From Chiloscyllium plagiosum (lineage: Eukaryota), in assembly GCF_004010195.1 (NCBI RefSeq), contig NC_057718.1:40938023-41002022 (forward strand): 64,000 nt of DNA, in the 5' to 3' direction. Shown here piece by piece: positions 1,242 through 63,910 of this stretch. Each line of letters begins with the position of its first letter. The stretch's first letter is position 1. The notes beneath the pieces were generated by a model, which had not been told where the DNA came from, made no database searches, and saw only the letters and a program-made list of their open reading frames with translations. A program made the translations under genes and the position numbers.

Positions 1242-1370
1242 ATTCCTGATGAAGGACTTTTGCCCAAAACATTGATTTTCTGCTCCTCTGATGCTGACTG
1301 ACCTGCAGTGCTTTTCCAGCACCATTCTAATCTTGACTGTAATCTGCAGCATCTCCAGACCCCACTTCTG
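1242..1370 (+). mobile_element. PLE-derived mini-element with decayed hammerhead motif
   Basis: ATTC-CTGATGA-A-GGAC-TTTT-GCCC-AAAAC (G12 lost), followed by the family 3' region TGCTCCTCTGATGCTG...CAGCATCT..CCCACTTC. Homologous to 3391, 13494 and 54252. Confidence 0.8.
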
Positions 1371-2237
1371 TATAGGTACCCTTGAGTTCCTGATGAAAGT
1401 TTGACTCCACAGTTTTCCTCTTCACTGTGTACTTTTTTCTGAGGTGGTGGGAGAAACAGGCATGGAGAGTGAAAGAGACTTCCAGTTCTTAGTTACACAT
1501 TCATTTTTTAAAATCTCTCCTCTGGTGTTCAAAAGCAGCGATTGAAATCTAGTTCAGAGGACATTCTGGAATCTAGCTCCATTGTCTTTCCAAGCTGGCT
1601 AAATGGCAGGAGAAGTTTTCATCTTCCAGTATGTGGTATTATCACACAGGTTTGAATTATGAAATTCTTGACAGTCAATCAATTGTCTGGTTTCCATGAC
1701 TTTAGATAGTGTTAAGTTTAACATTACCTTCACCAAAAAAGCTGTTGCGCTCAAACACAGTGTGGGAAAAGAGAGAAGTCATCCTAAACCTCATCACCTG
1801 GTCTTAATACTAACAAGGTGCTGGTGTCTGAGAATTTCCTTTTGCATGATGACTCCTGTCAAATAATGTAAAGCTGCACAGCATTTAGTTTTTACTTTAC
1901 GTGAAGTCCTCAGAGACGTTCCAGAATAAATGATCTTGCAATTTTGACGAAGCCTTGACAAAGCATTTTGGAAAGCCTCTGTAAGTGTTTCAACAGTCCT
2001 CTTTATAGCTCCAGCAGCAAGTGAACAGTAAAACATGATATAAAGTGAAGTAGTGCTCAAAATTCTCTGTACTGCTGATACTTCAATGGTAAAGTCATAA
2101 TTCAGGTTAAGGGTGAAGATGTTCCAGATGAGAATACTGGAAATGCCATTTAGTATTAGAATAATAACAAAAAGTGCCAGAATTGCTCTTCGTTCAGCAG
2201 GCAATTGGAAAAATAGAAGGTCACAAGCTTTACCATT

Positions 2238-2730
2238 ATAGACTTGTAATTCAGAGGTTTGGGCTAATGGTTAGCAGATATAATTTCATATCCCAATGCG
2301 GCAGCTGGAAACTTTAAATTCAGTTAATGAAATAAATCTGGAATTAAAAAGCAATTATCATTATTAGTGACCATGAAACTACCAGATTAATGTAAAAATA
2401 TGTCTGATTCACTAATGTCCTTTGAGAACAAAATATAATCTGTGTGTAATGCCAGAACCATAGCAAGGCAGTTAAATCTTCAATGTACTCCGAAATAGGA
2501 TGGCAAGCCTCTCTGTTGTGCCAAACTACAGATGAAAGAACAGAACAATAAAAGCAAGTGGATCACTTAACTGTACTGGGACATTGGATTCAGATGGACC
2601 AAGGAATAATTCAGTTGACCCTGCAAACCACCCCTACAACTAACATCTGGGGTGTGTGCCAAAATTGTGAAAATTATCCCATTGACTTCCCAAACAACAG
2701 TCTGACATTGTCATATGAAATCATACATTT
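2238..2730 (+). mobile_element. tRNA-SINE-like head running into the APE-endonuclease start of a CR1-type LINE (family B)
   Basis: SINE-like segment (GTGACCATGAAACT...TTCACTAATGTCCTTTG) followed by AACATCTGGGGTGTGTGCCAAAATTG...CAACAGTCTGACATTGTC, read as a frameshifted NIWG.VPKL.ELS..L..QQ.DIV APE N-terminus. Confidence 0.55.
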
Positions 2731-3260
2731 CAGCCGGTGTTTCAAACTCATGAATCCTCCATCATGAGCCCCATATGTTGGTTCATCTTGTTAGGCCCCC
2801 TTACTGATTTTTCATTATTTTGTTTTATTCTATTTATAACCTTTGGTTTGGAGTTGTGAACTGTGAGATAAATAGTGGACGTAACGTACTTCAGACAACA
2901 GTAAACAATCATATGACAGATAGGTATTCCTGCCACAGCCAGTCATGATGATGGAAAAAAAGAAAAACAAGTGGAAAGCGGAGGATACTTCAACATTCCC
3001 ATCCTCAGTGATATTGGCACACAACAGGAGTACAAAAGACTACTGTGGGGTTTAGCCAAATGTATAACTCAGCCTCCTCTTGATGTTCCTACCATATAAA
3101 AGCCAATCTGAATCAATCTGTATTTTCTTAAAATAGCTGAGTATATTAAAGACATTAGGCCACAATACCATTCTGGCTGCATTGCTGAAGATTTCCATTG
3201 GTCAATATCAGCTTCACCTCTACCAAGCTGCTTCAGTTATAGTTACAATGCTGGTACATT

Positions 3261-3480
3261 AGGAGAAAGTGAGGACTGCAGATGCTGGAGACCAGAGTTG
3301 AAAACTGTGGTGCTGGAAAAGCGCAGCAGGCCAGGCAGCATCCGAGGAGCAGGAGAATCGACGTTTTGGCCATAAGCCCTTCTTCAGGAATTCCTGAAGA
3401 AGGGCTTATGCCCGAAACGTCGATTCTCCTGCTCCTCGGATGCTGCCTGGCCTGCTGCACTTTTCCAGCACCACACTTTT
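3261..3480. mobile_element. Head-to-head palindromic PLE insertion with TSD
   Basis: Inverted arms of ~90-100 bp centred on GGAA|TTCC (3390/3391). Flanked by CAATGCTGGTA at 3246-3256 and 3481-3491. Confidence 0.9.
3391..3425 (+). ncRNA. Minimal type I hammerhead ribozyme motif, intact core
   Basis: CTGAAGA (3394-3400), extra A, stem II GGGC-TTAT-GCCC, GAAAC, GTC (predicted cleavage after 3421). Palindromic ACGT replaces stem III. Stem I is only ~2 bp. Confidence 0.75.
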
Positions 3481-3751
3481 CAATGCTGGTATGTACCTAT
3501 TATGATCCCAACTGTTGGTGATACTGCATAAGTCTGATCTGAGCAGGAAACCTGGCTTGATCGATCATATTTTGATTTTGCAGTTGGCTAATATAGTGGT
3601 CAGGCAATGAAATATATTCATGTGGGGCTGCAGATACTCATTATCAATAGAACACAAGTTTATTATATAAAAAAACAAATAAACTAATTGCGTGTATGTA
3701 TGTGCGTCAGCTAGAAAGATCTTAACACAAAAATCAAAACAAATTGTTAGA

Positions 3752-3880
3752 AACCAAAAGAATGCAGATGCTGTAAATCAGAGACACAACTGCTTTAGGT
3801 CAGAATTGGAACCACTGAGGAAGTTACTCGACCTGAAATGTTTACCCACACCTGCTGAGCTTTTCCAGCAAACAACTTGT
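3752..3880. mobile_element. Decayed inverted PLE terminal fragment
   Basis: Minus-strand tail GAATGCAGATGCTGTAAATCAG, then plus-strand CTGAGGA-AGTTACTCGACCT-GAAATGTT and CCTGCTGAGCTTTTCCAGCA, similar to 9120-9340. Confidence 0.55.
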
Positions 3881-4679
3881 TAACCTTTTCCCCAACACTA
3901 CCTGGTACAAAGTCTCAATGTTAGGGAAGTGTTCTTCCTCTCACTGTTTTTTCTTAACATTTGTACTCAGCTGACTTTTCCCACTTGTTTTTTTCTTGAA
4001 CCATGAAGACAATGTTATGTTTCCTTTTTGGGTCTGTTTGCATGATGTTTCACAATTCTGATAGACTGCTGTTTCTCAGTTTTAACAACTTGAAGATTTC
4101 CATCCAAACTTTCCTGACTTGGAAGCTCCACAGACCAGAAACCACTTCTGAGATGACAGGTCCCCCTAACCTCCCTTGATTCCCTGGCTAGGAATAACTG
4201 TTTTACCTTCTGAACTCAACACCGGGTTCTTCTGAATGCAAACTTAGAATCGTCTGTTCTGAAGTCAGAGGTGGCTTAATGTATTACTCTGTCTGTTATA
4301 ACTGCAACAGTATAATTGTTTACCCATTGACATGTCAGGGGTTTAGCAGGGTGGAATCACATGCAATCACATCATTCTTGGAACTGATAAATTTAGGTCA
4401 TTTTCCAAATGATTTTCTGATCTGTTGAAAAATCATCCTTTACAGAATTGACCAATATCAATCTGCCTCTACTTTGAAATCCTAATCTCAAAATATAACG
4501 TATATATTATACGCTTTTCATCACATACAGCACATAATAGAAAATTTCCCAGTTTTGTCCTCACCTCAAAAAGCAGGGCAAATCCAAGCTAGCCAAAGCC
4601 TCTTGCAATTATCAGCATGGAAGAGATTGTGAACAGTACTATCAAGTGATGCTTAATCATCAATAACTTACTCATTGAT

Positions 4680-4914
4680 ATAACAACAGAAAGTACTAGA
4701 AATACATAACAAGTATGACAGAATCTGTAGAGAGAGAAACAGGTGAACTTTTCAAGTCACGACCTTTCATCAGACCTGAGAAAAAATTAAAATTTCGCCT
4801 TTTAAGTAGGTGAAATGAAGGAGAGTGAAAAAGATGAAATAATGTCCCTTGATTTGCATTGAGATTCATTGGAACATTGCAGTCGGTCAAGGACAGAGAT
4901 GTCAAAGTGCAGCA
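4680..4914 (-). mobile_element. PLE 3' fragment carrying a hammerhead, nested in a LINE
   Basis: Interrupts the LINE between the diverged direct repeats TACTCATTGAT (4669-4679) and TACTCACTTAT (4915-4925). Confidence 0.65.
4740..4778 (-). ncRNA. Minimal type I hammerhead ribozyme motif with 5-bp stem I
   Basis: Minus strand reads CAGGT-CTGATGA-A-AGGTC-GT-GACTT-GAAA-AGT-TC-ACCTG. CAGGU pairs with ACCUG (stem I), AGGUC pairs with GACUU (stem II), and the UC site precedes stem I. Confidence 0.7.
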
Positions 4915-5069
4915 TACTCACTTATGCTCAGTTTGGGTTCTGCCAGCACCACTAAGCTTCAGATCTCTTTGGTTTGGTTCAAACACCAACATAAGAATTG
5001 AGTTGCAGAGGTGCAGTGAGAGTAACTGCTCTTGGATTCAAGGCAATATTTGATGAAACAGACATAGAA

Positions 5070-6190
5070 GAATTAAAGTCAATGCAATAGATGCTATCTA
5101 TATGTACTTTAAGCAAGTGTTTGAGAACGTACCACAGGAAGACTGGTTAGGAAAATCAAGGACCATTGAATAGGAATTACAGTGGGAACTTCATTAAAAC
5201 ATATTGAATAAACAGAAGCAGATTGTGGTAAATGGTTGGTTTCCCGATCGGAGGATGGGAGACAGTGGTGTTCCCAAAGGGTCAGTACTAAAACCACTGT
5301 TTTCAATATAACTTGGATATTGAAATAAAAATTGATATTTCAAATTTTTCCAATGACACCAAAATTGGAGATATCATAATCTGTGGGATTGATTCCAAAC
5401 AACTGCAAAAAAATATAGATTGGGTGCTGAAGTGGAAAATGGACTTTCGTATAAAGAGGTATGAAATATTAACAATAAAACAAACAACTGCAGATTCTGG
5501 AAATCTGAAACAAAACCAGAAATTGCAGGAGAAACTCAACAGCTCTGGACCAAAATGCTAACACTGCTTTCTCTCCACAGATGCTGCCAGACCTGCTGAT
5601 TTTCTCCAGCAATTTCTGTTTTTGAAGTATGAGATGATACACTGGCAGAAGAGATGGGATGGCCAATATGGATCTAATGGCCTAAAGAGAATGGGAAGGG
5701 ACAGCAAAACCTGGAGGTTCATGCATCTAGATTTTTGAAGGTGGTCAGACATGTTGAGAGAGTAGTAAGAAAAGCATATGTCATCTTTGGCTTCATAAAT
5801 ACCGTACGAGCTATTCCGTGCGAAAACATGGAGGCTATTGTTGATCTTTTTAAAACACTGATTCAGCCACAAGTGGAACACTGTATTCCGTTCTGGTCAC
5901 CACTCTTTAAGAAGGATATGAAGATCTATCAGATGATGCAGATGACCAAAATAGTCCCAGTTATGAGGGATATTATCTAAACGATTAGACTGAAGAAACT
6001 GGAGTTTCTCTCCTTAAAACAAAGAAGATTGAGAGGAGGTCTGATAGCAGTGTACAAGATTAAAGCAAGCTTAAGATTGTGAGAGAAAAGAAATGCTTGT
6101 ATTAGCCGATGGTACAGGACACAAAATTAAAATTTGGGCAAGAGATGTGGTGGTGATGTGAGGATGAGCCTTTTTACACAGTAAATGTAA
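5070..6190 (+). mobile_element. CR1 (HER1-like) LINE RT/3' fragment, decayed
   Basis: ISNFSNDTKIG (YADD-region equivalent FADDTK), LIQPQVEHCIPFWSP and LKKLEFLSLKQRRLRGGLI motifs. Confidence 0.85.
5475..5625. mobile_element. Inverted PLE terminal fragments nested in CR1
   Basis: CAAAACCAGAAATTGCAGGAGAAACTCAAC and its reverse complement GCTGATTTTCTCCAGCAATTTCTGTTTTTG flank GGACCAAAATGCTAAC. Confidence 0.7.
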
Positions 6191-6449
6191 CAGTTGAGAA
6201 TTCCATGGAGCAATTTGAAAATAAGGCTGAAAACTTTAAAGTCAATATGCTCCTTGAGTGGAAGCCAGTGTGGTGAATAGAGAAGTAGTGGGTGAATAGA
6301 CTTGGTGAAAATTATGGCATAAACATCATCGATTCAATGAACTCAGCTTTACAGACCACAGAATTTGGGAGACCAGCCAGGAGTGCATTAGAATTTTCAT
6401 GTTATGAGATAATAATGAAAGCTGAACATGAACAAGGCATTCAAGACAG

Positions 6450-6750
6450 TTATCCCTCTCATAAAAGGATTAAAAATGAGAGGCACAGATTTAAAGTCAT
6501 TTGCAAAGTAAGCCGATGCAATGTGAGAAAATCTTCTTCACACAGCGAGTAAATAGGGTCTAGAATGCAGTGCTTGGAAGTGTGGTGGGGTCAAGTTCAA
6601 TGAGGCATTCAAGAGGGCACTAGATGATTACTTGAATAGAAACAATTTCCAAGGTAATGGGGAAAAGGCAGCATAATGAAATTAAGTCATAATTCTGTAC
6701 AGACACAATGTACCAAATGATCTCCTTCTGCACATAACAATTCTGTGTTT
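6450..6750 (+). mobile_element. CR1 LINE 3' end
   Basis: RHRFKVI..K...NVRKSSS motif plus the CR1 3' UTR (CCAAATGATCTCCTTCTG...ATTCTGTG). Confidence 0.75.
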
Positions 6751-6789
6751 CAGTTCCATTTACAACTCCTCAAATAATGAGGCAGTCTA

Positions 6790-7100
6790 TGTTTGCATGC
6801 AGCAACAGCTGGAAAAAAGGCTAATGCTGAATTAGCAGCAAGTAACCTTGGGGCAACACAAGTGCCAAAAACAATGACTATCTCCATCAAAAGAATCTAA
6901 CCACCTCCCTTTGGCATTCAGCAGCATCGCTACCACCTACCATCAATATTCGAATCTTCATTGATCAGGAACATAACTGAATTGTCCACATAAGTATAAT
7001 AGCTACAAGATTGTGTCAGAGACTGAGAATTCTCTAATGACTAATCCATCTCCTGACTGCTCAAGACCTTCCAACATCAACAAAATACAAGCTTGAAACA
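6790..7100 (+). mobile_element. CR1-type family B post-RT fragment
   Basis: AAGTGCCA..CAATGACTATCTCCATCAAAAGAATCTAACCACCTCCC is the reverse complement of the family-B copy at ~56390-56450. Confidence 0.65.
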
Positions 7101-7139
7101 CACTCTCGGATAGATACTTTATGCCCCAGAAACTTGTAT

Positions 7140-8600
7140 ATTTCAATAAGACCATTTCTCATTCTTCTAAACTCCAATGTTGTGGATCCAACCTGCTCAC
7201 CCTTTCCTCATGAGACAACTTTTTCATCCCTGGAGTCTGCCTAGTGAACCTTCTCCAAACTACTTCCAGTACAAGAATATTCTCTTTACATAAAGCAACT
7301 AGAACTACACACAATGCTAGATGTGGCCTCACCAATGCCCTGTACAGATATAGCAAGAAATCCTTAGTCTTATGCTCAATCACCCTTGCAATAAAGGACA
7401 ACACTCCATTTATCTTCCTCATTACTTTTTGTGCCTGTGTCATAAACTGCCATTCATGTATGAGGACACCCAGATGCTATTGTATCAAAGCAATTCTATT
7501 TTACTTTTCTATTCTTTCTGTCAAAATTGACAACATACTTTAATCTGACAAATATTTATCATTCACCAAATCTAACTTTATCACTTTGCAGACTGTTATC
7601 CTCTTTACTAAACTTTAACTATTTGGAGTGTATGGGGTGGGTGGGGAGTGAGGAGAAGGATCAGGAAGCTAAGTTGATAAATATATTCAAAGCTGAGATA
7701 GATTTTTATTCAGTAAGGGGATAACAGGTTATGGGGTTAAGGTAGCTAAGTGGATTAGCCATGATCTCATTAGATGGCAGAGCTGACTCAGTGGGCTGAA
7801 TGGCCTAATTCTGATCCTACATCTTATGCGCCTGTATATTTGTACATGAGAAAATTTAGTTTCAGTACGGTTGGTCCCCTCTTCCAAGCCCTTAATATAA
7901 ATGAGCTCAATCGTTAAGCCCCCAGTACTGATCCCCTATGGTACACTGCTAATTCAAGTTTGCAAAGTTGAAAATGGCCCTAACTCTGAATCCTAACTCT
8001 GTTTCCTGTTGATTCACCAATATTCTAGATAGCTTAATATCTCATCTACAATACAGAGAGCTGTTAACGTGTGTTACAGCATTTGACATTATACCTCATT
8101 AAATGTAAATGCATTACACCTTCTGGTTCCCCTTTTATCATCCTCTTCTTACATCTTCAAAGAATGCAAACAAATTTGTTGGACACAATTTCCCTTTCAT
8201 AAAACTATGTGCTGTCTGCTTAATACAAGAATAAAAACATGATGCTGAACATGTATAAGGTACATGTTTGAACTCAACTCGAGTATTGTGTACAATTCTG
8301 GGCACAACACCATAAGAAGGATGTGAATGCTTTGGAGAAAGTGTTGAAGAGATTTAGAGCAGCGGTTTCATGGATGACAAACCTTGGTCATGTAGATGGT
8401 TTGGAGATGTTGTGACCATTCTCTTTGGTGAGATGAAGGCTAAGTGGAAATCTGCTAGACATGTTGCATAGAGTAGATGAGAGAAACTGTTTTCAATTAT
8501 AAAAGGATGAAGAGCAAAAGAGTAAAATTTAAAGTGATTTATGAAAGAAGCAAATGTGGTGCGAGATAAAAACATTTTCACACAATGACTGGTTCAGGTC
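7140..8600. mobile_element. Cluster of CR1 fragments in alternating orientation (7140-7600 -, 7620-7830 +, 7850-8220 -, 8225-8600 +)
   Basis: ORF 7159..7443(-) LYLYRALVRPHL...RRFTRQTPGMKKLSHEERVSRL, and plus-strand LEYCVQFWAQHHKKDVNALEKV at ~8280-8345. Confidence 0.8.
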
Positions 8601-8604
8601 TGGT

Positions 8605-9562
8605 TTCACAGCTCATCTCCTCCAAGATGATGGCGAAGTAACAGGGCTGAGCCCAGGCCACATCAGCTCTTGTTCTTTTTTGTATCTCTTCTTCTTTTTA
8701 CTTTAGTTCTTTTCCTTTTTTTCTTCTTTTTTATCTTCGGTTTTCTTTTCTCCAAAGTGGTGGGTGAAGGAAGAGTACACTGGCAGTAGCAACAACAATG
8801 CCGGGCCGAGCAAGCCACAGCTCCATCCCAGCCTGAGGTCGCCTGGCAAGCAAGGAACAGGTCCCGGGTTGACTTGCCCAGCCTGGACCCGCAGGCTGAG
8901 CCGAGGCACCAGGCCTGGGCACCTGAAAGAGTGGAAGCAGCGGCAGCAGCATCTAGAGGAGTGTCGAATGGAAAACAGGTTGTATGTAACCCATGCATCC
9001 CCAGGCCCATGGTTCTAGCTTGGTGGTCGTGGGAATGATGGCAGTGAAAGCCTGCAACCAAGACCCTAGAGCTCATTACAAAAGCTCAGAAAACCATAAT
9101 ACCATCATAGGATCACCAAAATCTAAAAACTGAAAGGATTACAGATGCTATAAATCAAAAAAAAGAACTTGCTGGCAAAGCTCAGCAAGTCTGGCAGCAT
9201 CTGTAAAAAGAAATCAGAGTTAACCCTTCTTCAAAACTCTGCTTTCTCTTCACAGATGCTGCCAGACCTGCTGAGCTTTTCCAACAACTTGTGTTTTTGT
9301 TTTTGATTTACAGCATCTGCAATTCTTTCATTTTTTATGAAAACCCAGGAGCCAGTTTCAGAGACTCCAGCCAATGTCAAGCAACAACTGGAAAGCAGTG
9401 GAGTTTGAACAAAAAGAGAGAAAGATGAACTCCATTACAGAAAAACCTTACATTATATTTAGGTTTCAAGATGACGTTGGAGCATGGTGACTCTTTGCAT
9501 ATAACGTGCAAGAAAACACTTTTCACTGTATTTTTATATACATGTGACAATAAATCTAAATC
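8605..9562 (+). mobile_element. Non-coding LINE-tailed retroposon inserted in CR1
   Basis: Starts near CAAGATGATGGCG, then a pyrimidine tract and a GC-rich body. Ends CACTTTTCACTGTA...TACATGTGACAATAAATCTAAATCT (Rex1/L2-like tail from memory). CR1 resumes at ~9563. Confidence 0.5.
9120..9340. mobile_element. Head-to-head palindromic PLE terminal fragment
   Basis: ACAGATGCTATAAATCAAAA...CTCAGCAAGTCTGGCAGCATCTGT is mirrored by ACAGATGCTGCCAGACCTGCTGAG...TTTTGATTTACAGCATCTGC. Confidence 0.8.
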
Positions 9563-9735: not shown

Positions 9736-9779
9736 TAGTGTTGTGGTTTTCTGAGATTTGAGTATTCTCCCAATGACAA

Positions 9780-12050: not shown

Positions 12051-12175
12051 AGTCATACTGGACTCAAAACAGTAACTCTGTTTCTCTCTCCACTGTGATT
12101 GCCAAACCTGCTGAGTTTCTCCAGCACTTTCTGTTACAGATTTTCAGCTTCTGCACTATTCTGCTTTTATACTTT
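12051..12175 (+). mobile_element. PLE 3' terminal fragment starting inside the hammerhead stem II
   Basis: AGTC-ATACTG-GACT-C-AAAAC, then AACTCTGTTTCTCTCTCCAC...CCTGCTGAGTTTCTCCAGCACTTTCTGTT. Confidence 0.65.
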
Positions 12176-13493: not shown

Positions 13494-13625
13494 ATTTCTG
13501 ATGAAGGGCTTTTGCCTGAAACATTGATTTTCCTGCTCCTTAGATGCTGCCTAATCTGCTGTACCTTTCCAGCACTATTCTAATCTTGAATCTAATCTCC
13601 AGCATCTGCAGTATTCACTTTCACC
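13494..13625 (+). mobile_element. PLE-derived mini-element with hammerhead motif and TSD
   Basis: ATTT-CTGATGA-A-GGGC-TTTT-GCCT-GAAAC-ATT, ending CACTTTCACC. TAGTTCT at 13486-13492 and 13626-13632. Confidence 0.8.
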
Positions 13626-14256: not shown

Positions 14257-14500
14257 AGGAGAAAGTGAGGACTGCAGATGCTGGAGATCAGAGTCAAGAG
14301 TGTGATGCTGGAAAAACACAGCAGGTCAGGCAGCATCTGAGGAGCAGGAGAATCGACGTTTCAAGCATAAGCCCTTCATCAGGAATGAGGCTGATAAGCC
14401 TCACTCCTGATGAAGTGCTTATGCCCAAAACGCTGATTCTCCTGTTCCTCGAATGCTGCCTGACCTGCTGTGTTTTTCCAGCTCCACACTCTCGACTCTG
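14257..14500. mobile_element. Head-to-head palindromic PLE insertion
   Basis: Arms mirror about GAGGCT-GATA-AGCCTC (~14387-14402). The left arm has the full terminus AGGAGAAAGTGAGG. The right arm is 3'-truncated at CTCGACTCTG. Confidence 0.9.
14351..14386 (-). ncRNA. Minimal hammerhead ribozyme motif, intact core
   Basis: Minus strand ATTC-CTGATGA-A-GGGC-TTAT-GCTT-GAAAC-GTC-GATT. Stem II is retained through G-U pairs. Confidence 0.65.
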
Positions 14501-26399: not shown

Positions 26400-28527
26400 A
26401 AGAACCTACTTGAGAGCACGTTATTCTAGACTGGGTGTCGTGCTACGAGAAAAGATTAATTAACAACCTTGTTGTGCAGGGTCAATCGGAAAAAGAGCAA
26501 CCATGAAATGGTAGAGTTAATCATTTAAAATGGAGAGCAAAGAAATTGAATCTTAAACTAATGCCCTGCATCTAAATAAAAGGAACTATAGAGTATGAGG
26601 AAATAATGGATTGGGAAACTTTACTAAAGGGGTTGACAGTGGATAGGCAATGGTTATTAGTTAATAATGTTTGCATGAATTACAATTAGCCATTCCTATC
26701 CAGTGTAAAAGTAAAACAGGAAATATGGCTCAAACATGGTTTACAGAAGAAATTAAAGACAGTATTAAATCCAAAGAGGAGACATATAAAATTGTCAGAA
26801 AAAGCAACAAGCCTGAGGATTTGTAACAGTTTAGAACTCAACAAAGAGGTTGATCAAATGCAGGAAAGTTGAATATGAAAGCAAGTTTGCAAGGATCTTA
26901 GAAATTGATTGTAAAAGCTTCTATAGATAGAAGAAGAGAAAAAAAATGAGTGAAGAAAAATGTAGGTCCTTTACAACCAGAAACACTGGCAATTATAATG
27001 GGAAACAAAGAAATTACAGAAGACTTCAATACATACTGAAAACAACAAATCCTGGAGATCACAGCAATTCAGACAACATCCATGGAGTGAGTCACAGCAC
27101 AAACTGCAGGAATAACATCCCATTTTCACGCACTTTACAGCCTCCTGGATTTAATATTGAGTCCAAAACCTCTAATTTGAGAACCAATTCCCATTTCTTA
27201 CCCTTCTTTTAGCTTGTTATCATGTCCTTCCCTCCCCTATTCCACTCACTATTCTTTTAAGTTTGGCAGGAGACACACCTTTGTTCTGCCGTTCTCACAT
27301 TCTGATTATTTAATCTGAACTATCAACATCTTTTCTCCATCAGCACCCTGCGCTCACTACCCTCACCCCCACCCCTTGCAAACAAAAGCATAAATGCTGT
27401 CCCCTTCACACTTCAGCTCTGATGAAGAGTTGTCTGGATTGAAGTGTTAGCTTGCTGTCTCTCCATGGATGCTGCCTGACCCACTGTGATCTCCAGCATT
27501 TGTTGTTTTCAGTACAGATTTCAGCATCTGCAGTAATTTGTTCCTACAACTTAAATACATATTTCAGTTCTGTCTTCACAAAAGAGGACAGAAATAATTT
27601 CCCAGAAATGTTAGGGAACTAAAGATCTAATGAGTTCAACGAATTGATGAAAGTCAATATTAGTTTGGTTAATGGTATTGTTAATGGGGTTTTAAAATAA
27701 ATTAATGAGGTTAACGGTTGACAAATCACCAGGGCCTGATCATCACCATCCCATAGTACTAAAGCAAGTAACCTTGGAAATACTGGATGCATTGGTGGTC
27801 ATCTTCCAAAATTTTGGAGCAATTCGTACAGATAGAGGATGACAGATGTAACCCCACTATTTAAAAAGAGAGAAGGAAAAAATGAAATACAGATCAGTTA
27901 GCCTAATATCTGTGGTGGGGAATATATTAGACTCTATTATAAAAGATGTGATAACAGAACACTTGGAAAGCATTCCTGGGATTGGGCAAATTCAGCATGG
28001 ATTCATTAAAGGGAAATCATGCTTAACTAGTCTTCCAGAGTTTTTTGAGGATTTAATTAGTAGTTGGATAAGGGACAATCAGTGACTATCATGTATTCGG
28101 GTTTCAAGAAGGCCAAAGATAAGGTCTCACGTAACAGGCAAATAGGCAAAATGAAAACACATTGGATTGGAGGAAATATATTGGCATGGATTGAGAATTG
28201 CTTGACAGGCCAGAAACACAGAGTTGTGAGAACAATGCAAGGAGGCTTCAAGGCGACTTAGATGGGTTGAGTATGTGGACAAACACTTGGTGGATACAGT
28301 ACAATGTGGCTAAATGTGAAATTATACACTGCAGTGTAAAAAACCGAGAGGGGAAATGTATATACAAAAGGATCACCAGCTAGTGAAAGTAGATAGCCAT
28401 GTACAGCAAGTTTTCGGAAGACAAGTGGTATGTTGGCCTTCATTGCAAGAGGATTTGAGTTCAGAAGCAGAGATGTCTTATAATAATTATACAGGGCTTT
28501 GATGAGAGCACTCCTGGAGAACTGTAC
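26400..28527 (+). mobile_element. CR1 LINE (APE end to RT), left part; continues at 34448
   Basis: KYRSVSLISVVGNILDSIIKDVITEHLE..QIQHGFIKGKSCLTSL and QGDLDGLSMW..WIQYNVAKC. Breaks at LENCV. Confidence 0.88.
27035..27548 (+). mobile_element. PLE 3' end (GIY-YIG tail, 3' UTR, decayed hammerhead) with inverted upstream terminal copy and TSD
   Basis: QHKLQE*HPIF..TLQPPGFNIE at ~27095-27165 and AGCT-CTGATGA-A-GAGT..GATT-GAAG-TGTT-AGCT at 27415-27452. Segment ~27035-27087 is the reverse complement of ~27462-27514. ACTTCAATACATA / ACTTAAATACATA flank it. Confidence 0.85.
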
Positions 28528-39614: not shown

Positions 39615-40235
39615 CTTGAAAAGATCCACATTTTGTTGCAGCTTTTCATCTTGTGTTCATCAGGGCAATTCACAAGGTTATCAATGTAGAGGGAAAACAA
39701 TATTTTCACTATATGAGGAGAATGTGCTGATTGGTTGACAGGTAGGCTCTTGTTGATAAAGGTGTTGCCATGGAAGATGCATTAGCTCAATGATGACTGG
39801 CAGTTAACTGTAAGATCCATTTAAACTTTAAACCAGATAACTTGACTCTTATTAGTCAAGGCATTGTCCTGCAAAATGAATTAGAGAATGATTTTCACCT
39901 ATTTTGTTGAGTTGAAACAGATTGATTTTGTGTTCACATCCTTTCTCTTTCGGTACTGATATATGTAATTTTCATTATACACAAGTATGCTATCCTGCAA
40001 ACTCAGCTGTTACTCCCAAATTGATTGTCAGCATTTTTTGTGCATGCAGGATTATTTAGCAATTTTTGTTCATTTGCAGAATAGTATCAAATTTTGAGTT
40101 ATGCAAGCATAGATTGTTTGTATGGACTCAATACCTTGCTTGTTGTGACTGTTTAACATCTTCCATCATTCTTTGGGACGTACAAACCTAACATCACACT
40201 GGCACCGAAACTCATATACCACAATACTCACTTGT
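39615..40235 (-). mobile_element. Old PLE: GIY-YIG domain relic, 3' UTR and decayed hammerhead
   Basis: Minus strand QVSIVVYEFRCQCDVRFV (40235-40180), then SANEQKLLNNPAC..DNQF. Hammerhead-like CTGATGA-ACACAAGAT-GAAA-AGCT-GC at 39663-39638. Confidence 0.75.
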
Positions 40236-44710: not shown

Positions 44711-45056
44711 ATTAGATTAGATTAGATTAGATTAGATTAGATTAGATTAGATTAGATTAGACTACTTACAGTGTGGAAACAGGCCCTTCGGCCCCACAAG
44801 TCCACACCGACCCGCCGAAGCGTAACCCACCCATACCCCTACATTTACCCCTTTACCTAACACTACGGGCAATTTAGCATGGCCAATTCACCTGACTTGC
44901 ACATCTTTGGACTGTGGGAGGAAACCGGAGCCCCCGGAGGAAACCCACGCAGACACGGGGAGAACGTGCAAACTCCACACAGTCAGTCGCCTGAGTCGGG
45001 AATTGAACCCGGGTCTCTGGCGCTGCGAGGCAGCAGTGCTAACCACTGTGCCACCG
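44711..45056 (-). mobile_element. Young HE1-type SINE nested in CR1
   Basis: (ATTAG)10 tail at 44711-44760 and a CpG-rich body. Host CR1 reads ACCAAT|...|AATGTCCTG (short AAT duplication). Confidence 0.95.
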
Positions 45057-52075: not shown

Positions 52076-52318
52076 GATCTCTGTCTGCTGACTGGTTATC
52101 AATGTTTCCCTCCACATTTTCATCCAAAATGTACATTCATTTGTTAATAAAGCCTTTTTGTATCGTGGAGGACTTTATTGAAAGAGAAATGTCTAAACGG
52201 TGAAGGCCAGACGAGAGGTCTGTTTCCTGTTATGCGTGGCTAATCTGTGTAAGTGTACAAACTTCTTTTCTGCATGTTCTGTCCACAAGTTTGAAAAGAC
52301 TGACTTGTGTACAGCCTG

Positions 52319-52408
52319 AAAAATGTGTTGCTGGAAAAGCGCAGCAGGTCAGGCAGCATCCAAGGAGCAGGAGAATCGCCGTTTCGGGCATAAGCCCTTC
52401 TTCAGGAA
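52319..52408 (-). mobile_element. 90-bp hammerhead mini-element with 13-bp TSD
   Basis: TGTGTACAGCCTG at 52306-52318 and 52409-52421. Minus strand TTC-CTGAAGA-A-GGGC-TTAT-GCCC-GAAAC-GGC (cleavage triplet mutated). Confidence 0.9.
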
Positions 52409-53992
52409 TGTGTACAGCCTGCATAGTTTGACAGCCACAAGTCTAGAGGAGACATTGGTGACATATTATTCCACCTTTAATCACTTGCTGAAACTTTCAG
52501 AGTACTGATGTTGGATTTATCTCTAAATCATATCTTCATCTCTCCCCTTTCTCTGCTGGCAACTTCTCCTCCATTGAACATCTCACCTTATGTCAATTTT
52601 CATTTAATTAAAATCTCAACTAAAATCTTTTTCTCCCCCATCTCATTGTTTTCCTGAATAACCCCCCACTGATATACAAATCCCAGGAGACTCAGGAAAC
52701 TGTCAGGACTGGAGAAAAAGGTAAAGAGAGACATACAATAGGTACAAAAAGAACAAAACAACCGAGGTTCTGGTGAAGTATAAAGAGTGCAAGGGGAGCT
52801 CAAGATAGCAATTGGAACAGCAAAGAGGGGACATAAAAGAAAACACCAGTGGGCAAGATTATGGGGAATTCCAAGATATTCCACAAATATATCCAGGGGA
52901 AGAGAATAACCACAGAGAGTCAGACACATGAGGGGCAATCTGTGCATGAAGCCGTAGGATATTAGTGGAGTGTTAAATGAGTATGCCACATCGATCTGTA
53001 CTGAGGAGGAGGTCGCAAGTACAAAATTTGAAAAGATGGACTGTGAAGTTCTTGAGCAGATTGATATTGGAAGTGAGGAATTATTGGAGGTTTTGGCAGA
53101 TTTAAATTCTCACATCTGGATAGGTTGTATTCCAGACTGTTGTGAGATGATGAAAGAAATTACAGGGCTCCTGACCCAAATTTCTAACTCATCCCTGGCT
53201 ACAGTGGAGGTGCCAGAAGATTGGAGGACAGATAATGTGCTTCCACTTTACAAGAAGAATGGTAGAGATAAACCAAGGAACTATAGGTCAGTGCGCTTCA
53301 CATCAGTAATAGGAAGCTATCAGAGAAAGTAGCAAAGGATAAAATTAATCTCCATTTAGAGAAGTAGGGTTTATGGTCAGAAATAGTCAGCATGGTGTTT
53401 TTAGAGGGAGGGCATGTCTAACAAATCTAGTTGAAGTTTTCAAGGAAGTGTTCAAGTGTTTGGATGAGCATAGGCCAGTTGATGTCATTTCAGAAAGACC
53501 TTTGACAAGGTCCCACATGGAAAATTGATTTTAAAAATGTAAAGCTCATAACATCCAGGGTAAGTTGTCAGGTTGGATCTAAAATTAGCTTAGTTACAGG
53601 AGACAGAAGGTGTTGGTTGAAGGCTGTTTGTGTGATTGGAGGCCAGTGTCCAGTGACATTCCACAGCGACCAGTGCTGGATCCCTTAATGTTTATGATGT
53701 TCATAAATAATGTAGATGAGAATATAAGGGAGAATGATAAGCAAATTTACGGATGAAACAAGGATTAGCCGGGTGGCTGACTATAAAATGGAAGGTGTTA
53801 GGTAACAGAAGGATATATATTGGTCAGATGGACAGATCAATGGCAGATGGAATTTGATGTTGATAAATGTGAAGTGATGTTCCTTCTTCCAAAGTGCAAG
53901 ACATGGGAGTAGTCAGTGCATGACAGCACGCCAGGAAACTCAGAGGGATCTTGGAGTGTTTGTCTACAGATCCCTGAAGGTGGCAAAACAGG

Positions 53993-54652
53993 TGTGACAA
54001 TTCTGTGGCTTTAAGAGGTATGCTTTGTCCTGGTTTCTTTTCAAGAGAGATTGCAGGACAGGTAGTGAGCAGTCTATGAGAAGATAAACAACTTGTGAAG
54101 CCTTGAGATTTTTTTAAGTGGGAAGAATAGAGGTAGCCTAGATGGGTGTGGTCAAGCTCCCACACACAGAACCAGCATTCCGCAGTTCTGTTGGGGTCTT
54201 GAAGACATGGAAGGTATTTTTTTCCCTGTCAGCTGTTACTATTTTGGAACACATTCCTGACGAAGGGCTTATGTCAGAAATGTTGACTCTCCTGCTCCTC
54301 GGATGCTGCCTGACCTGCTGTGCTTTTCCAGCATCACACTTTTTGATTCTGATTGCCAGCATCTGCAGTCCTCAGTTTCTCCTACTATATTGGAACAGTT
54401 AATTAATAACAGTTACTGTATCTAATGTTCTGTCAAGGTTTCCAATAGAGTTTTTATTCCAATTTCGTCTTTTATTTATTGACGTTTAACTATAGTGGAT
54501 GTATAAGTGTGTTTTTCTTTAAATCCGGTAGTTTGACCAATCAAATTGCATCTGGGACACCTTGCCTTATATTTACCTTGAAAATAAGAAAAAAAGTTAG
54601 GGTCGAGACTATCTTTTGAATGTTTTGAAGGAGTTTGGTGTGGTCCATAACA
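53993..54652 (+). mobile_element. Solo LTR related to 23959-24569
   Basis: TGTGACAA...TTGAATGTTTTGAAGGAGTTTGGTGTGGTCCATAACA. Flanks CAGG/AAGG form a 4-bp TSD with one mismatch. Interrupts CR1. Confidence 0.8.
54252..54382 (+). mobile_element. 131-bp hammerhead mini-element with 15-bp TSD, nested in the LTR
   Basis: CATTC-CTGACGA-A-GGGC-TTAT-GTCA-GAAATGTT...CAGTTTCTCC. TACTATTTTGGAACA (54237-54251) / TACTATATTGGAACA (54383-54397). Confidence 0.88.
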
Positions 54653-57778: not shown

Positions 57779-57887
57779 CTCCATATATACCTATGAGAAA
57801 GTGAGGACTGCAGATACTGGAGATCAGAGCTGAAAAATTTGTTGCTGGAAAAGTGCAGCAGGGCAGGCAGCATCCAAGGAGAAGGAG

Positions 57888-57923
57888 AATCGACGTTTCG
57901 GGCATAAGCTCTTCTTCAGGAAT
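57888..57923 (-). ncRNA. Minimal hammerhead ribozyme motif, intact core
   Basis: Minus strand ATTC-CTGAAGA-A-GAGC-TTAT-GCCC-GAAAC-GTC-GATT, with one A-C mismatch in stem II. Confidence 0.65.
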
Positions 57924-58325
57924 GAGGAAGGTATGCCAAGCAGGCTAAGATAAAAGGTAGGGAGGAGGGACTTGGGGGAGGGGCATTAGGAATGCGATAG
58001 GTGGAAGGAGGTTAAGGTGAAGGTGATAGGCTGGAGAGGGGCTGGGGGCAGAGAGATCGGGAAGATGATTGCAGGTCAAGAAGGCGGTGCTGAGTCCGTG
58101 GGTTGGGACTGAGATAAGGTGGGGGGAGGGGAAATGAGGAAGCTGGAGAAATCTCTCAGCACCGCCTTCTTGACCTGCAATCTTCTTCCCGACCTCTCCG
58201 CCCCCACCCCCTCTCCGGCCTATCACCCTCACTTTAACCTCCTTCCACCTATCGCATTCCCAACACCCCTCACCCAAGTCCCTCCTCCCTACCTTTTATC
58301 TTAGCCTGCTTGGCATACCATCCTC

Positions 58326-58361
58326 ATTCCTGAAGAAGAGCTTATGCCCGAAACGTCGATT
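58326..58361 (+). ncRNA. Minimal hammerhead ribozyme motif, intact core
   Basis: ATTC-CTGAAGA(58330-58336)-A-GAGC-TTAT-GCCC-GAAAC-GTC(58355-58357)-GATT, identical to the opposite arm. Confidence 0.65.
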
Positions 58362-58554
58362 CTCCTGCTCCTTGGATGCTGCCTGACTGCTGCGCTTTTC
58401 CAGCAACACATTTTTCAGCTCCATATATACCTATCTTTTGCCTAGCCACGGATTCTATCTGGCAACTCAATAATGGATTGTCCATGGACTGCTGGAGAAA
58501 GGTGTGATATGTCATATATAATTTTCACAAGTTCAGACCTTAACATTTTTAAAA

Positions 58555-60078
58555 AATATATTTTTATTTAAATTTTTTTTTAAATATTGCAACAAATACA
58601 AAACAATACAATTTTAAAAAATACAAAGAAAGAACACAAGAAGAAATTTATAAAACCCAAACTGCCCTTAGGCACAAATGTATTAATATATATAAAAACC
58701 CAAATAACCATTTAACTAAATAAATAATAACTAACAACAAACCAATAAATAATAATAATACAGCTCAGCAAAACAAAACACTAACTCTCGAATATCGAGA
58801 GCAGTAATTTTCACATATTCATATGTTTGCAGTTTTCCCTCTCTGCTTATTGAACTCATAAAGCACAATCGTTATGGCTATATTGAAAGCCCTTCATAGT
58901 GTGGCAGACAAATCTGTTTTCAAGTAGCCCAAAAAGGGCCATCATCTCTTATAGAAATTCTCAGTTTTGCAGTGTACCATAATTGTAAGAAAATCCATGG
59001 GGATATGCTCCATAATAACCTTACTCCAAACCAACAGGCCTGGGGGAGTTTTGGACACCCAATCTAACAACATATTCTTTCTTGTGCAGAAATTCAGCAC
59101 ATTGAAAAGTGTTTTCTCATGCGCATCTACAGGACATACACTGGGCAGGCCAAGAAGAAGAGAAATTGGGTCTTTGTCCACCCTTGCACCCAAAATCCCC
59201 TTCATTTCACCCACCACAATGCTCCAGTATATTTGAAGCCTACCACAGGACCAGAGACAATGGGTAAGAGTGCCCGTACTAACTTTACACTTGGGGCATG
59301 TTGAAGAAACCCCTGGTTTAAATTTCGACAAATGATCCAGAGCCAAGTGGACACTGTGGGGAATCTTTAACTGTAAAGCATGGGTCCTATTGCAAATTAA
59401 TATCTTTCTTGCATTTTCCCAAATATCTTCCCATGCCGCTGAGGAGATCTCAATGACTAGCTCTCTCTCCCACACCCTACAAAGTCGATCAAACTCATCT
59501 GAGGAGCCCCCCCAACCCCTGCTTGATGATATAAAGTGCTGACAGAAAGTGTACTCTGAGCACCAAGCACCCTCCTCTCTATGTCGGATTTGCAAGGATC
59601 AATCAAAAGTATAGCCTTTTTTTTGAATAACATTCCTAATTTGGAAAAAACGAGAGGTTCTTCCGAGATAGCTCGTATTTCCGTGCTAACTGATCAGAAG
59701 GCATCATTGTGTCTCCCTCAAATAAATCACCCATGCAAAACACACCCCTAGCTGCCCAATGTTTGAATCCTGAATCCATCAACCTTGGTTGAAAGCCCCA
59801 GCATACCCACTATAGGCGTAAGAAAAGATGTTTTGCCAATATTGCCTTCCCTCTGCCGAATTGCCCTCCATTCTTTAACAGTATCGGTAACTATTGGGTT
59901 ATGGCAATATTTCTTAACTGTCCTCATTTTGTCCAAAAACAGCAAACTGCTAAAGGGGCACTTTGCCTGAGAGGTTTCGATATCTAACCATATTGAAATA
60001 GGGTCCCCACAAGCCCAATCACTCACATAAAAGTGAGCTTAGTTGATCGTTTTTAATGTCCAGGAGATCCACTCCCCA
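58555..60078 (-). mobile_element. L1/Tx1-clade LINE 3' end
   Basis: ORF 58942..59595(-) WERELVIEISSAAWEDIW...CPKCKVSTGTLTHCLWSC (CCHC zinc knuckle of L1 ORF2). T-rich 3' UTR and A-rich tail on the minus strand near 58560-58580. Confidence 0.9.
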
Positions 60079-60610: not shown

Positions 60611-60859
60611 AAAGTTTAACAGAATACAATATAGCGTTGCCGCCTGGAATGTTCAACATCTGTTCTGGTAAGAGCAAACTATTGATTGACAGACTTTAAT
60701 TAATAATAATATACAGTGCATAGGCAAGTTTCATATTTTTGATCCTTTTTCCAGAGAAGAAATTTGGAAAAAAAAGCGTAATAATATTACTGAAATAAGT
60801 AAAATGTAAACCATTCAGTTAAAAGTACACCTAGACTCCAGATGCTAAGTAGTTGTTTT

Positions 60860-61115: not shown

Positions 61116-61344
61116 AAATATTAAGCAATTTGATAACTTTTCTGAATAATCAGAACATTTCACAAACCTCTCAGGTAAAACAGCAATTTAGTATGCTGTA
61201 CTCAACATAAGAACTAAGAGCAGGGGTAGGAAAGTCAGCCCCTTGAGCCTGTTCCACCATTTGATACAATCATAGCTGATGTCATCTTGGTCTCTCCTCC
61301 ACTTTCCTGCCTGGTCTCCTAATCCATGTGTTGCCTGGGATAGA

Positions 61345-61880
61345 GACCCATCAACATTTGGGAGATCAAACACAATTTGGAAAATTGCTTTGCTGAACTA
61401 CATTGAGTCTGTAAGGATGACTTCAAAGACTGACCCCTTATCCCTTTGATTCTTCACCCGACTGTGAATTCACTGTCTTTGTTGTCCTACCCTGTTCCAA
61501 TGAAGTTCAACAGAAGTTTAATGAACAGCATCATATTTTTCAATGAGGTACTTTACAACCATCTGCATTCAGTATTGTACTTAGTAATCTGAGATCATAA
61601 TCAAAACTCCTATTTTTTGGTGCTGGTAATGATTCTGCTGTTCCAACTTATATTTTGTTTCTTTACTAGTTCATTACCAACCTCTTTTGCCTTATATCTT
61701 TCATACCTTTCTCCATTTAATCACGCTGCCCTCCAAAATATTTTAGACCTCTTGACCCTATTCATTCCTTCTGTTTTCCACCACCCCACATTATTTTCCC
61801 CAGCACTGACCTTGCCCATAAACTGTTAAGTCTCCAACATCTTTTTCCAGTTACCATGAAAAATGATTGATGTGAGCTGT
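61345..61880 (+). mobile_element. Old PLE: GIY-YIG relic and 3' UTR
   Basis: I.EIKHNLENCFAE (IGETxRxLxxRFxEH-like), then LPCSNEVQQKFNEQHHIFQ*GTLQPSAFSIVLSNLRS* at ~61487-61600. Confidence 0.7.
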
Positions 61881-62649
61881 TGGGGGTAATTCTATCCTCA
61901 CGAACCTGTCCCAACCTGACCTCTTCCAGTTTTAGTGGGACAGGCAATTAGCTAGCTTCCTTAAGCATGTAATTGTTACAATGAGGCTATGTGTCTGATA
62001 TTTAACCTATCTTTCAGGTTTAACCCCAGCAGCTATGGGAAATGAGGCCTACTTTGTGGAAGATAGTTCTTTTCAGCATAGTTTGTGGGTCAAAAAGTGT
62101 TTCCTACTGGACCAATAATCTACCCTTCTTCCTTTCATATCCACCAGTTTCCAGGAGATTTAACAATGTCTTCACCTCCCTCCCCACCCCCTCCCAACAA
62201 TCATGCTTTCCCCACTCTGGGCCAAGACCAAGACTTGGAGATTACACCCCCTCAACATGACTTTAGATTGATTTCCCCTCCAGGCATCAATGCCCAATTC
62301 CACTTGTGATGAGATTATACCGTCCCTGAAGATCCAGGTATACACTCCCTCCAGCCCAGCTACATCTCCCTAGCAATCTTGGATTTTGTCCTCCTCCAGA
62401 GCATTGCCTTTCTCAAAAGGAAGCCACGATTGTCAATTTGGCTGGCTTTGAGATGGGTAACATGCTTGAAAGGAAAGACTATGTATTGTAAAGTCAAATG
62501 ACTAATAGTTGACAAAGATTACACACTGATGTAGAAAAACATGGCATGTTATTTAGTTTGTATCATGAAGGTAAGTTGTACTGATTGAATTAAGTGAACT
62601 GGTCATAACTATTTCTCTGTATGCCACCTCAGTAAAATAAAACAATTAA

Positions 62650-62960
62650 GTAGGAACATAGAAACAGGAATGGTCTATTCAGCTTTTCGAGCCTGTTCCA
62701 TCATTCAATGAAATCAAATGGTTGATCTGTTGCCTAACTTCAAAGGCCTGCCTTTGAACTATATCTTTTAATACCTTTGTTTAACAAAAGATTATCTATC
62801 TCTCAGATTTAAATTAATAACTGATCCAAACTCCACTGCCATTTATGGAAGGGAATTCCAAGCATCTGCCATCCCTATGTTTCTTAAAATCTCTCCCGAA
62901 CGGTCTGGCCCTAATTTTTGGAATCCCAACTAATGTAAATAGTTTGTTTACCTTGTTTTT
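62650..62960 (-). mobile_element. CR1 3' end
   Basis: GGAACATAGAAACAGGAATGGTCTATTCAGC..GAGCCTGTTCCATCATTCAATG tail. A shorter similar tail lies at 61205-61325. Confidence 0.7.
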
Positions 62961-63032
62961 TTCCTGTTATGATTCCTGTAAATCCATACTGTTTCTATGT
63001 TTGTTTAGTTCATATCCCAAGTGATATAAAAA

Positions 63033-63910
63033 TGAAATAAAAACAGAAATTGCTGGAGAAACTCAGCAAGCTTGGCAGTATCTGTGGAGAGAAAGCGGAG
63101 TTAACATTTTAGGTCCAGTGATCCTTCTTTAGAATTGACTGTAGCTAGGAAAAGTTGATATTGAAGAGAGGGTAAGGGGAGGTGAGAGAGAGCAAACAGT
63201 AAGTGGAGATAGATTGCAGAGAGATAGCCAGGTAAATAGACAAGGTCTTTTCCCCAGGGTGGAGCAGTCCAAAACTAACGTGCATAAGTTTAAAGTGAGA
63301 GGGGAAAGATTTAAAAAGGACCTAAGGGGCAACTTTTTCATGCAGAAGGCAGTGTGTGCATGGAATGAGCTGCCAGAGGAAGTGGTGGTGGCTCATACAA
63401 TTATAACATTTAAAAGACATCTGGATCGGTATATGAATAGAAAGGGTTTAGAGGGACTTGGACCAAATGCTGTCAAATGGGACTAGTTTTATCTAGGATA
63501 TCTGCTCAGCATGGATGGGTTGGACTAAAGGGTCTGTTTCCCTGCTATACAGCTCTATAACTTCATGACTAACAGCAGTTGGGCAGACAAAGGAATGGGG
63601 AAAGGTTAGCCTGGGAGAATCAAGCGCTGCTAATGGGGACCATATAACTGACAACGGGTAGATTGTTGTGGCAGCTCATGTGTGTGGAGGTGTGTGTGAA
63701 GACATAAAAGAAAGTACTCAGACCCTAAAATTATTGAACATGATATTGAATCCATAAGGCTGCAGTGTCCCCAAGCGAAAAATGAGATCCTGTTCTTCCA
63801 GCTTGCACTGAGCTTCGCTGGAGAACTGCAGCATGCCTGAGACAGAGATGTTGGCCAGGGAACATGGTGGTGTATTGAAGTGGCAGGCAACTGAAGGCTC
63901 AGGATCAGTA
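63033..63910 (-). mobile_element. PLE 3' end: GIY-YIG C-terminus, 3' UTR and decayed hammerhead; split by CR1
   Basis: 63906-63718 translates DPEPSVACHFNTPPCSLANISVSGMLQFSSEAQCKLEEQDLIFRLGTLQPYGFNIMFNNFRV*. Minus strand CTAAAGA-A-GGATC-ACTG-GACCT-AAAAT-GTT-AACT at ~63132-63098. Confidence 0.85.
63228..63570 (+). mobile_element. HER1-like CR1 3' end nested in the PLE 3' UTR
   Basis: ORF 63214..63486 VNRQGLFPRVEQSKT..HKFKVRGERFKKDLRGNFF. Confidence 0.9.

Follow-up and report, generated by a model that had tools for sequence, protein, structure and literature searches.

Introduction

Minimal hammerhead ribozymes (min-HHRs) are carried in the pseudo-long terminal repeats (pseudo-LTRs) of metazoan Penelope-like elements (PLEs) and cleave weakly as dimers (Cervera and de la Pena 2014, PMC4209133). 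The role of these hammerheads has been described as unclear (PMC8557442). In PAc, the Poseidon element of Anolis, reverse transcription starts at two internal sites, both target strands are extended and uncut RNA serves as the template, and cleavage by the hammerhead occurs only when protein is there (Frangieh et al. 2024, PMC11167929). In this study, a 64,000-nucleotide stretch of the Chiloscyllium plagiosum genome (contig NC_057718.1, positions 40,938,023 to 41,002,022; hereafter the window) was analyzed, in which an initial annotation had listed 15 hammerhead-like motifs attributed to PLEs. These motifs are almost certainly minimal type I hammerheads of PLEs. The copies that carry them are probably decayed 3'-end copies of several Neptune-type families, mostly stubs produced when reverse transcription ran off an uncut RNA at its 5' end, the predicted start of this RNA being the first base of stem I of the hammerhead.

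Hammerhead Motifs and Their Families

Each motif is named by the window coordinate of hammerhead position 3 (the C of CTGA), which is counted as 0; on this scale the predicted cut in family A falls after +27. On the strands given, a CTGANGA-like box has its position 3 at each of the 15 listed coordinates. The strict pattern CTGANGA-N10..18-GAAAYGT is found six times in the window, against a mean of 0.01 and a maximum of 1 in 100 Markov-1 resamples, and the two core boxes alone are found nine times (mean 2.18, maximum 6 in 100 such resamples). A hammerhead profile trained on 198 seed copies matched 18 places, namely 14 of the 15 listed motifs together with 5541, 9235(-), 9237 and 12059; the sole listed motif without a match, 39663(-), belongs to a different family. 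As annotated, A, T, C and G all occur at N7 among the window copies. The core was said to be mostly kept, and both boxes are indeed exact in ten of the 15, with the remaining five altered. An Rfam covariance-model search, proposed as a check, gave no hammerhead family among its 20 matches at E<=5, and its microRNA-type matches fall on inverted pairs. No longer-stem motif of the Poseidon type was seen in the window.

Clustering of 259 copies gave families A1 (121), B (66), A2 (29) and E (5), with 38 copies in small clusters; families C and D were defined by searches with the window copies 27419 and 39663, respectively, and the relatives of 4773 are mixed and form no clean family. In an alignment of six intact representatives (A1, A2, A3, B, C and E), 97% of cells are paired, and six of the 11 pairs show double changes between families. 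Stem I holds three of these and stem II two; the sixth is the 3-8 core pair, where C3-G8 is replaced by U3-A8. Values as high arose in 4 of 500 shuffles, a control that ignores the relatedness of the families and hence gives no probability; for slid partners the paired share is 18-40%. Except for the U3-A8 swap, the CUGANGA and GAAA boxes and U16.1-H17 are constant, with G5, A6, A9, G12, A13, A14, A15.1 and U16.1 invariant. Helix I consists of 4 bp, three of them with double changes. In each of the six representatives helix II contains G10.1-C11.1; A9 is followed by an extra base, and two of the four helix II pairs are doubly changed, which agrees with the compensatory changes anticipated for stem II. 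Helix III lacks a loop, and positions 15.2-16.2 form the palindrome ACGT in families A, B, C and E. The 39663 motif is not of the minimal kind, its family having a palindromic AAGCTT as stem III instead. Among the annotated stem II variants, AGTC/GACT holds at the family level, although the 27419 copy itself is worn.

These patterns bear on the notion of a structure that binds protein or serves as a promoter and, for all its likeness to a hammerhead, never cleaves. The copies appear to derive from uncut RNA (see below), cleavage by PAc is dispensable for insertion in vitro (PMC11167929), and Naiads lack canonical hammerheads (PMC8557442), all of which would suit such a structure. Covariation of the 3-8 core pair, the invariance of the eight catalytic-core positions named above and the protein-assisted cleavage of the PAc motif (PMC11167929) argue against this notion, and a never-cleaving structure is hardly credible.

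Conservation between families is not matched within them. In 48 young A1 copies, non-CpG core positions are changed in 5 of 480 cells, as against 6 of 480 in ten flank columns (a count that leaves out the four subfamily-diagnostic columns +37, +38, +42 and +44), and the catalytic G12, which lies within a CpG, is changed in seven of the 48. With core and flank rates alike, selection on individual copies was rejected; individual copies decay neutrally. A per-copy audit found G12 lost in 1246, 3387, 14407 and 63132. Five copies had been credited with a complete catalytic core: 3394 and 14382 retain it and, among the 15 listed copies, they alone keep boxes, stem II and ACGT palindrome together, whereas 4773 is broken and 57919 and 58330 are weakened by an A.C mismatch in stem II. 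The window copies are most likely inert.

Two families merit separate description. Family E, which is absent from the window, has a perfect AGCT/AGCT stem I and a canonical TATAAAT at -35 (loci L266-L290). It has 968 exact copies, and among the matches listed U3-A8 is present in 94 of 100, C3-A8 in six and G8 in none. As a natural core swap with a perfect stem I, this family is suited to cleavage assays. In family D, stem I is of the TTGTC/GACAA type, stem II is weak and stem III is AAGCTT, a short palindromic variant of helix III. This family is an old, separate element (39560-39860 (-); loci L171-L195) with a different open reading frame (ORF) end, a TATA-like sequence at about -45 and possibly an extended stem I. 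Pfam, Atlas and homologue searches for its clade were blank, its C-terminal end alone having been recovered. The traits of the Hydra clade, i.e., a CxCX5C linker, the lack of CCHH and a divergent reverse transcriptase (RT), were considered for this family (PMC8557442).

Linkage to Penelope-like ORFs

The frame at 63721..63957 (-) reads as the C-terminus of a GIY-YIG endonuclease in a family B element, and the same copy continues past the window through a CxxC linker and RT motifs. By eye, a long interspersed nuclear element (LINE) fragment lies between this frame and the 63132 motif. The frame has 72,886 candidate matches genome-wide. Pfam gave no match for it, and in the Atlas a family B frame was matched to GIY-YIG/HTH_animal clusters at 0.96-0.97; a family A frame reached the Pfam GIY-YIG model at E=6e-4, under the curated cut-off. 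A hammerhead lies downstream of the GIY-YIG end in 12 of 18 long loci, and among 19 family C loci a GIY-YIG end lies upstream of the motif in 16. The long copies of family A extend into the same ORF end. An RT followed by a C-terminal GIY-YIG was found in families A and B, and the GIY-YIG end only in family C. The CX2-5CxxC linker precedes the endonuclease in family B loci, including the copy that adjoins the window, and is not intact in the family A loci examined; following the definition in PMC8557442, it points to the Neptune clade, an assignment made from motifs. No intact full-length ORF was present among the loci fetched.

Within the window, the initial annotation had placed several motifs downstream of GIY-YIG ORF ends. 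Such an end is recognizable at 63132, and terminal codons alone can be discerned by eye at 27419 and 57919; the other motifs are stubs or 3' untranslated region (3'UTR) fragments without an ORF. The identity of the motifs as PLE hammerheads rests jointly on the GIY-YIG/RT linkage, the covariation between families and the published definition (PMC4209133). The presence of several PLE families is likewise supported, and the motifs belong to at least five retroelement families.

All Neptune-type families have in common a downstream module at +44..+126, which begins with a shared ATG and contains a GATGCTG...CAGCATC long-range stem and a TGCTG/CAGCA hairpin. It is a candidate RT-binding structure and ORF start. 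Family E is tied to PLEs by this module only.

A further PLE clade may be present in the genome, as locus L137 (519-1178 (+)) holds a GIY-YIG frame of another type, which we take to be Poseidon-like. At another locus (L136:3-3869 (-)), a family B element adjoins a host exon of 1,289 codons in which immunoglobulin-like repeats are discerned by eye.

Genome-Wide Abundance and the 5' Ends of Copies

In the 3.56-Gb genome, exact matches number 35,369 for a 28-mer that spans the motif and 127,054 for a 31-mer immediately downstream of it; reversed controls gave zero in both cases. Because of these counts, motif density is a property of the genome and not of the locus; the window is typical.

To describe where copies begin, 107 family A copies were chosen by a downstream anchor (+46..+76), so that the hammerhead itself was not selected for; five were cut by assembly gaps. 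The anchor loci are most of the first 100 listed of the 127,054 matches, all on one contig (C1). Twelve of 107 copies begin in +45..+17, 30 of 95 in +16..+1, 31 of the 65 still at risk in 0..-8 and two of 31 in -12..-40. A peak of 25 copies falls at -5..-3 (25/65 at risk; 25/102 copies). Starts at the cut site were tried and rejected as an origin of copies, with two of 102 (+27..29). Genome-wide, 32,534 exact copies reach -4 and 16,602 reach -8, part of this drop being due to mutation and subfamily variation. The upstream extension shared with another copy is at most 14 nt in 20 of 25 family E copies and 26 of 30 family B copies, in a test sampled on the motif itself and ungapped, which undercounts long worn copies.

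Most sampled copies are stubs of 90-135 bp with 3' ends near +91 or +126. Their very high copy number, defined length and target duplications would fit a separate, self-propagating family, resembling short interspersed nuclear elements (SINEs) or retrozymes, that is transcribed and cut on its own. The stubs, however, carry the same subfamily-diagnostic bases as long ORF-linked copies and lack the -35 box described below, and a retrozyme-like cycle should yield starts at the cut site, which are as rare as just stated, or head-to-tail arrays, of which none were seen in the window. A family of this kind is accordingly quite improbable.

A more serious rival keeps the PLE identity and attributes the pile-up of 5' ends to stalling of RT at the folded motif together with microhomology to AT-rich targets, no promoter being involved. 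The 30 of 95 copies that end within the motif are what stalling would produce, many target duplications overlap the first one to four element bases, and the PAc endonuclease prefers ATT (PMC11167929). Against this, the peak lies at the far edge of the structure, and the same ATTC word at +29..+32 draws six ends (+28..+31) of about 100, compared with 25 of 65 at -5..-3. Stalling also leaves the TATA match fixed at -35 in five families unexplained, and this reading appears unlikely.

A target duplication was scored in 25 of 44 solo copies and often abuts or overlaps the first element bases. Directly before A(-4), a G at -5 was present in 59 of 100 listed non-templated copies (by eye) against 27% expected, and in the unbiased set G precedes nine of 22 starts at -4..0 as against 21 of 80 other starts. 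A G derived from the cap is possible, but the excess does not establish a cap because it is mostly part of the target duplication.

A TATA-like Box Upstream of a Candidate Initiator

One TATA pattern was scored over 154 upstream positions in A1 (31 copies), A2 (10), B (31), C (12) and E (4). In all five families the best position is -35, i.e., 31 nt above A(-4), where mean mismatches range between 0.25 (E) and 2.35 (B), compared with medians of 4.3-4.9. Family D departs from this rule, as its TATA-like sequence at about -45 indicates. In family C the box sits at -35 in 11 of 12 copies. All six representatives carry an A at -4, the pairing partner of the last stem I base, and the hexamer at -6..-1 fits a TCAKTY initiator as TCATTC in A1 and TCAGTT in B. 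A TATA sequence about 31 nt above an initiator A is thus found as a sequence pattern; in SCP1, a synthetic promoter, the beginning of TATA lies at -32 relative to the peak start (bioRxiv 2025.11.21.689830). At locus L140, where a pseudo-LTR precedes the ORF, a TATA-like box and the motif are followed by an ATG in the frame of the RT motif, with stops between. In the main texts of the largely open-access literature searched, a fixed -35 TATA position linked to a hammerhead was not found.

Splicing offers another way to place copy ends at this boundary, if it were a 3' splice site as in the Penelope of D. virilis. That intron ends at helix I (PMC4209133), and pyrimidines followed by AG at -4/-3 are present in B, C, E and the 4773 copy. 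Yet A1 shows the peak with CAT rather than CAG, target duplications directly adjoin the motif and leave no room for an upstream exon, and many copies keep A(-4), which would be intronic; a splice site is very unlikely to be the source of the ends.

Poly(A) reads from a related organism show a roughly sevenfold rise in depth across 58312-58343, and 163 reads have unrelated sequence before 58326 (-4 of the 58330 motif); these lie on both strands and reflect passenger copies, which dominate the poly(A) read fragments.

Several observations weigh against a transcript start at stem I, or against parts of the wider interpretation. The same reads show no massed RNA start or end. In A1, A2 and B the match to TATA is weak, with on average 2.1-2.4 mismatches out of 7, the E value comes from four copies, and the five families are related, so that their agreements are not independent. 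Families C and E do not fit TCAKTY. The D. virilis Penelope uses an internal TATA-less promoter with a start well upstream of its hammerhead (PMC2377424, PMC4209133). The boundary itself is not clean, given the 30 copies that end inside the motif, and the G at -5 lies inside the target duplication in eight of 25 scored copies, being an extra base in only two. As to the ribozyme, stem I of the dominant family, A1, contains one U.U mismatch, and for the two window copies tested the minimum-energy prediction is a fold other than the full hammerhead. As to the ORF, a GIY-YIG end or ORF lies upstream in none of the 25 short family E copies. On the sequence patterns as a whole, a start at stem I nevertheless appears fairly likely.

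Inverted Pairs and Dimer Cleavage

An inverted partner accompanies 47 of 102 copies. In the window, the close pairs 3387/3394, 14382/14407, 57919/58330 and 9235/9237 stand head to head on opposite strands, and the three main pairs bear the tail on one arm only. A transcript through such a pair would contain one sense and one antisense copy and would form a long hairpin and no ribozyme dimer. Same-strand copies in the window are spaced 0.4-40 kb apart, the close pairs being inverted. Because the close pairs are opposite-strand and the best same-strand copies lie 43-55 kb apart, dimer cleavage at the window copies is predicted to be unlikely. In the pair at 9160-9298 the junction runs through the two complementary stem I arms, an arrangement that points to snap-back priming by the cDNA.

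A Proposed Model for Transcription and Insertion

Taken together, the copy ends and the fixed TATA position would show the insertion templates to be uncut, and they predict the start site to the base. The pseudo-LTR would hold an RNA polymerase II core promoter, with TATA at -35 and the initiator A at -4, such that the hammerhead forms the first 32 nt of the transcript. Reverse transcription would begin at the two internal sites of the tail, in line with what was measured in Anolis. If it begins in the 5' pseudo-LTR copy, it would run off after 95-130 nt and leave a promoter-less stub; if it begins in the downstream pseudo-LTR of a read-through RNA, long copies would result. Two cDNAs, or one snap-back cDNA, joined by microhomology would give head-to-head pairs. 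In an active tandem, the ribozyme may work as a dimer and/or with the help of protein, cutting after GUC/GUU at +27 and thereby removing the capped leader.

This model allows a tentative proposal on function, in which the hammerhead of Neptune-type elements is the first 32 nt of a capped mRNA, its first stem I base being fixed by the promoter, and serves, shortly before the start codon, as a switch for self-decapping. The solo hammerheads, which number more than 100,000, would be run-off copies of the uncut 5' end. That decapping is the selected function is conceivable, although we hold it with some doubt. If true, PLE hammerheads would gain a concrete role, and the litter of solo motifs in animal genomes would be explained.

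Copies and Other Features of the Window

The best-kept copy is the A1 hammerhead at 3390..3425 (+), with core, 4-bp stem II, ACGT and GUC. It belongs to an inverted-pair insertion (3246..3491) with an 11-bp target-site duplication (3246-3256, 3481-3491), whose tail-bearing arm holds an A1 hammerhead without G12 at 3356..3391 (-). In the second pair, a family A hammerhead at 14351..14386 (-) has a complete core and two G.U pairs in stem II and lies on the tail-bearing arm; its partner, also of family A, at 14403..14438 (+) has lost G12. The third pair is an insertion at 57779..58434 with a 16-bp target-site duplication. It comprises A1 hammerheads at 57888..57923 (-), on an arm bearing 3'UTR and the last ORF codons, and at 58326..58361 (+), both with the stem II A.C mismatch; a TATA-like TTTATCT at 58295..58301 (+) occupies -35 of the latter.

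Other copies of family A include an A2 stub without G12 at 1242..1277 (+), an A2 stub with a tail and without G16.2 at 13494..13529 (+), and a CpG-decayed stub with a tail at 54253..54385 (+), which begins near A(-4). A 93-bp A1 stub at 52317..52409 (-) begins exactly at A(-4), is flanked by an 11-bp duplication and has lost U16.1. The family C hammerhead at 27415..27452 (+) is worn with stem I AGCT/AGCT intact, and its TATA-like CATAAAT (27389..27395 (+)) stands at -30 after a 5-nt deletion. Family B is represented by a hammerhead with two core changes at 63099..63136 (-), and family D by a worn copy at 39633..39668 (-). A worn motif at 3811..3846 (+), B-like by eye, has stems I and II broken. 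The old motif at 4742..4777 (-) has AGGTC/GACTT as stem II with A-U at the 10.1-11.1 pair; its ACGT palindrome and three of four stem I pairs are gone. The profile added three features to the initial annotation: the 3' half of a motif with the downstream module (5541..5624 (+)), a head-to-head pair (9160..9298) whose minus arm has stem II deleted and whose plus arm begins at the 3' arm of stem I, and a worn copy at 12059..12137 (+) with AGTC/GACT as stem II and the first box gone.

A second worn GIY-YIG end lies at 61340-61600 (+), followed about 250 nt on by a CATAAAC box and a barely recognizable motif remnant (~61810-61900 (+)) without a profile match. LINE fragments, presumably CR1-like, occupy 18400-21750, 28700-32100, 44200-45630, 51000-53330 and 63145-63570, with an RVT_1 match at 51618-51944. 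A 218-codon frame at 58942-59598 (-), for which a Pfam search gave no match, resembles, as we take it, the C-terminus of L1/Tx1 ORF2. A 207-nt repeat is present at 38243, 44849 and 55794, and a 112-bp tandem duplication at 230-453, 99% identical, may be an assembly artefact.

Comparison with Known Systems

The closest likeness is to the min-HHRs of PMC4209133, which are also type I, without a helix III loop, with a palindromic 15.2-16.2, an extra base between 9 and 10.1, G10.1-C11.1 and a short helix I, and of which one genome can hold many families, the copies being largely solo or on opposite strands. The U3-A8 variant of family E is known from Schistosoma, in which helix II has 7-8 bp, in contrast to the 4-5 bp found here (PMC4209133). 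Abundance differs as well, a single 31-mer having 127,054 exact copies here compared with about 4,000-9,000 motifs in coelacanth and Xenopus (PMC4209133).

Like Neptune PLEs, the elements combine an RT, a CX2-5CxxC linker and, at the C-terminus, a GIY-YIG, and they share strong 5' truncation, an adjacent inverted copy, a 30-40-bp tail on one end and a pseudo-LTR hammerhead (Craig et al. 2021, PMC8557442). Their clade is read from motifs, and the fetched loci included no intact ORF. With PAc they share uncut RNA as the template and a pair of internal 3' ends, which are separated by about 35 nt and located some 90-125 nt below the motif; PAc differs in clade and in its ORF, which starts at stem II, whereas the candidate ATG here lies about 20 nt after the cut site (PMC11167929).

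The rotifer element Pen2a_Av of Adineta likewise has a putative TATA and initiator inside its pseudo-LTR, as well as inverted pseudo-LTRs with palindromic junctions, a tail and a target duplication (Arkhipova et al. 2013, PMC3846280). Its spacing, however, is 20 bp, and in the passages of that paper drawn on, neither a hammerhead nor copy ends are connected with the box. Non-LTR retrozymes are, like the stubs, non-coding, hammerhead-bearing and derived from pseudo-LTRs (Li, Clavereau and Pollet 2026, bioRxiv 2026.07.22.740005). They form head-to-tail tandem arrays, unlike the solo stubs or head-to-head pairs seen here, and membership in this group was rejected for the window copies, whose close pairs are inverted.

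The sections of PMC4209133 drawn on make no mention of a 5'-end peak at helix I or of a TATA 31 nt upstream, both seen here, though its supplements, which lie outside this comparison, may hold families from this animal group. The motif class, its presence as solo and inverted copies and the U3-A8 variant have already been published there. The hammerhead finding itself therefore repeats the 2014 result in another vertebrate, and the possible novelty lies in the geometry of copy ends and TATA position.

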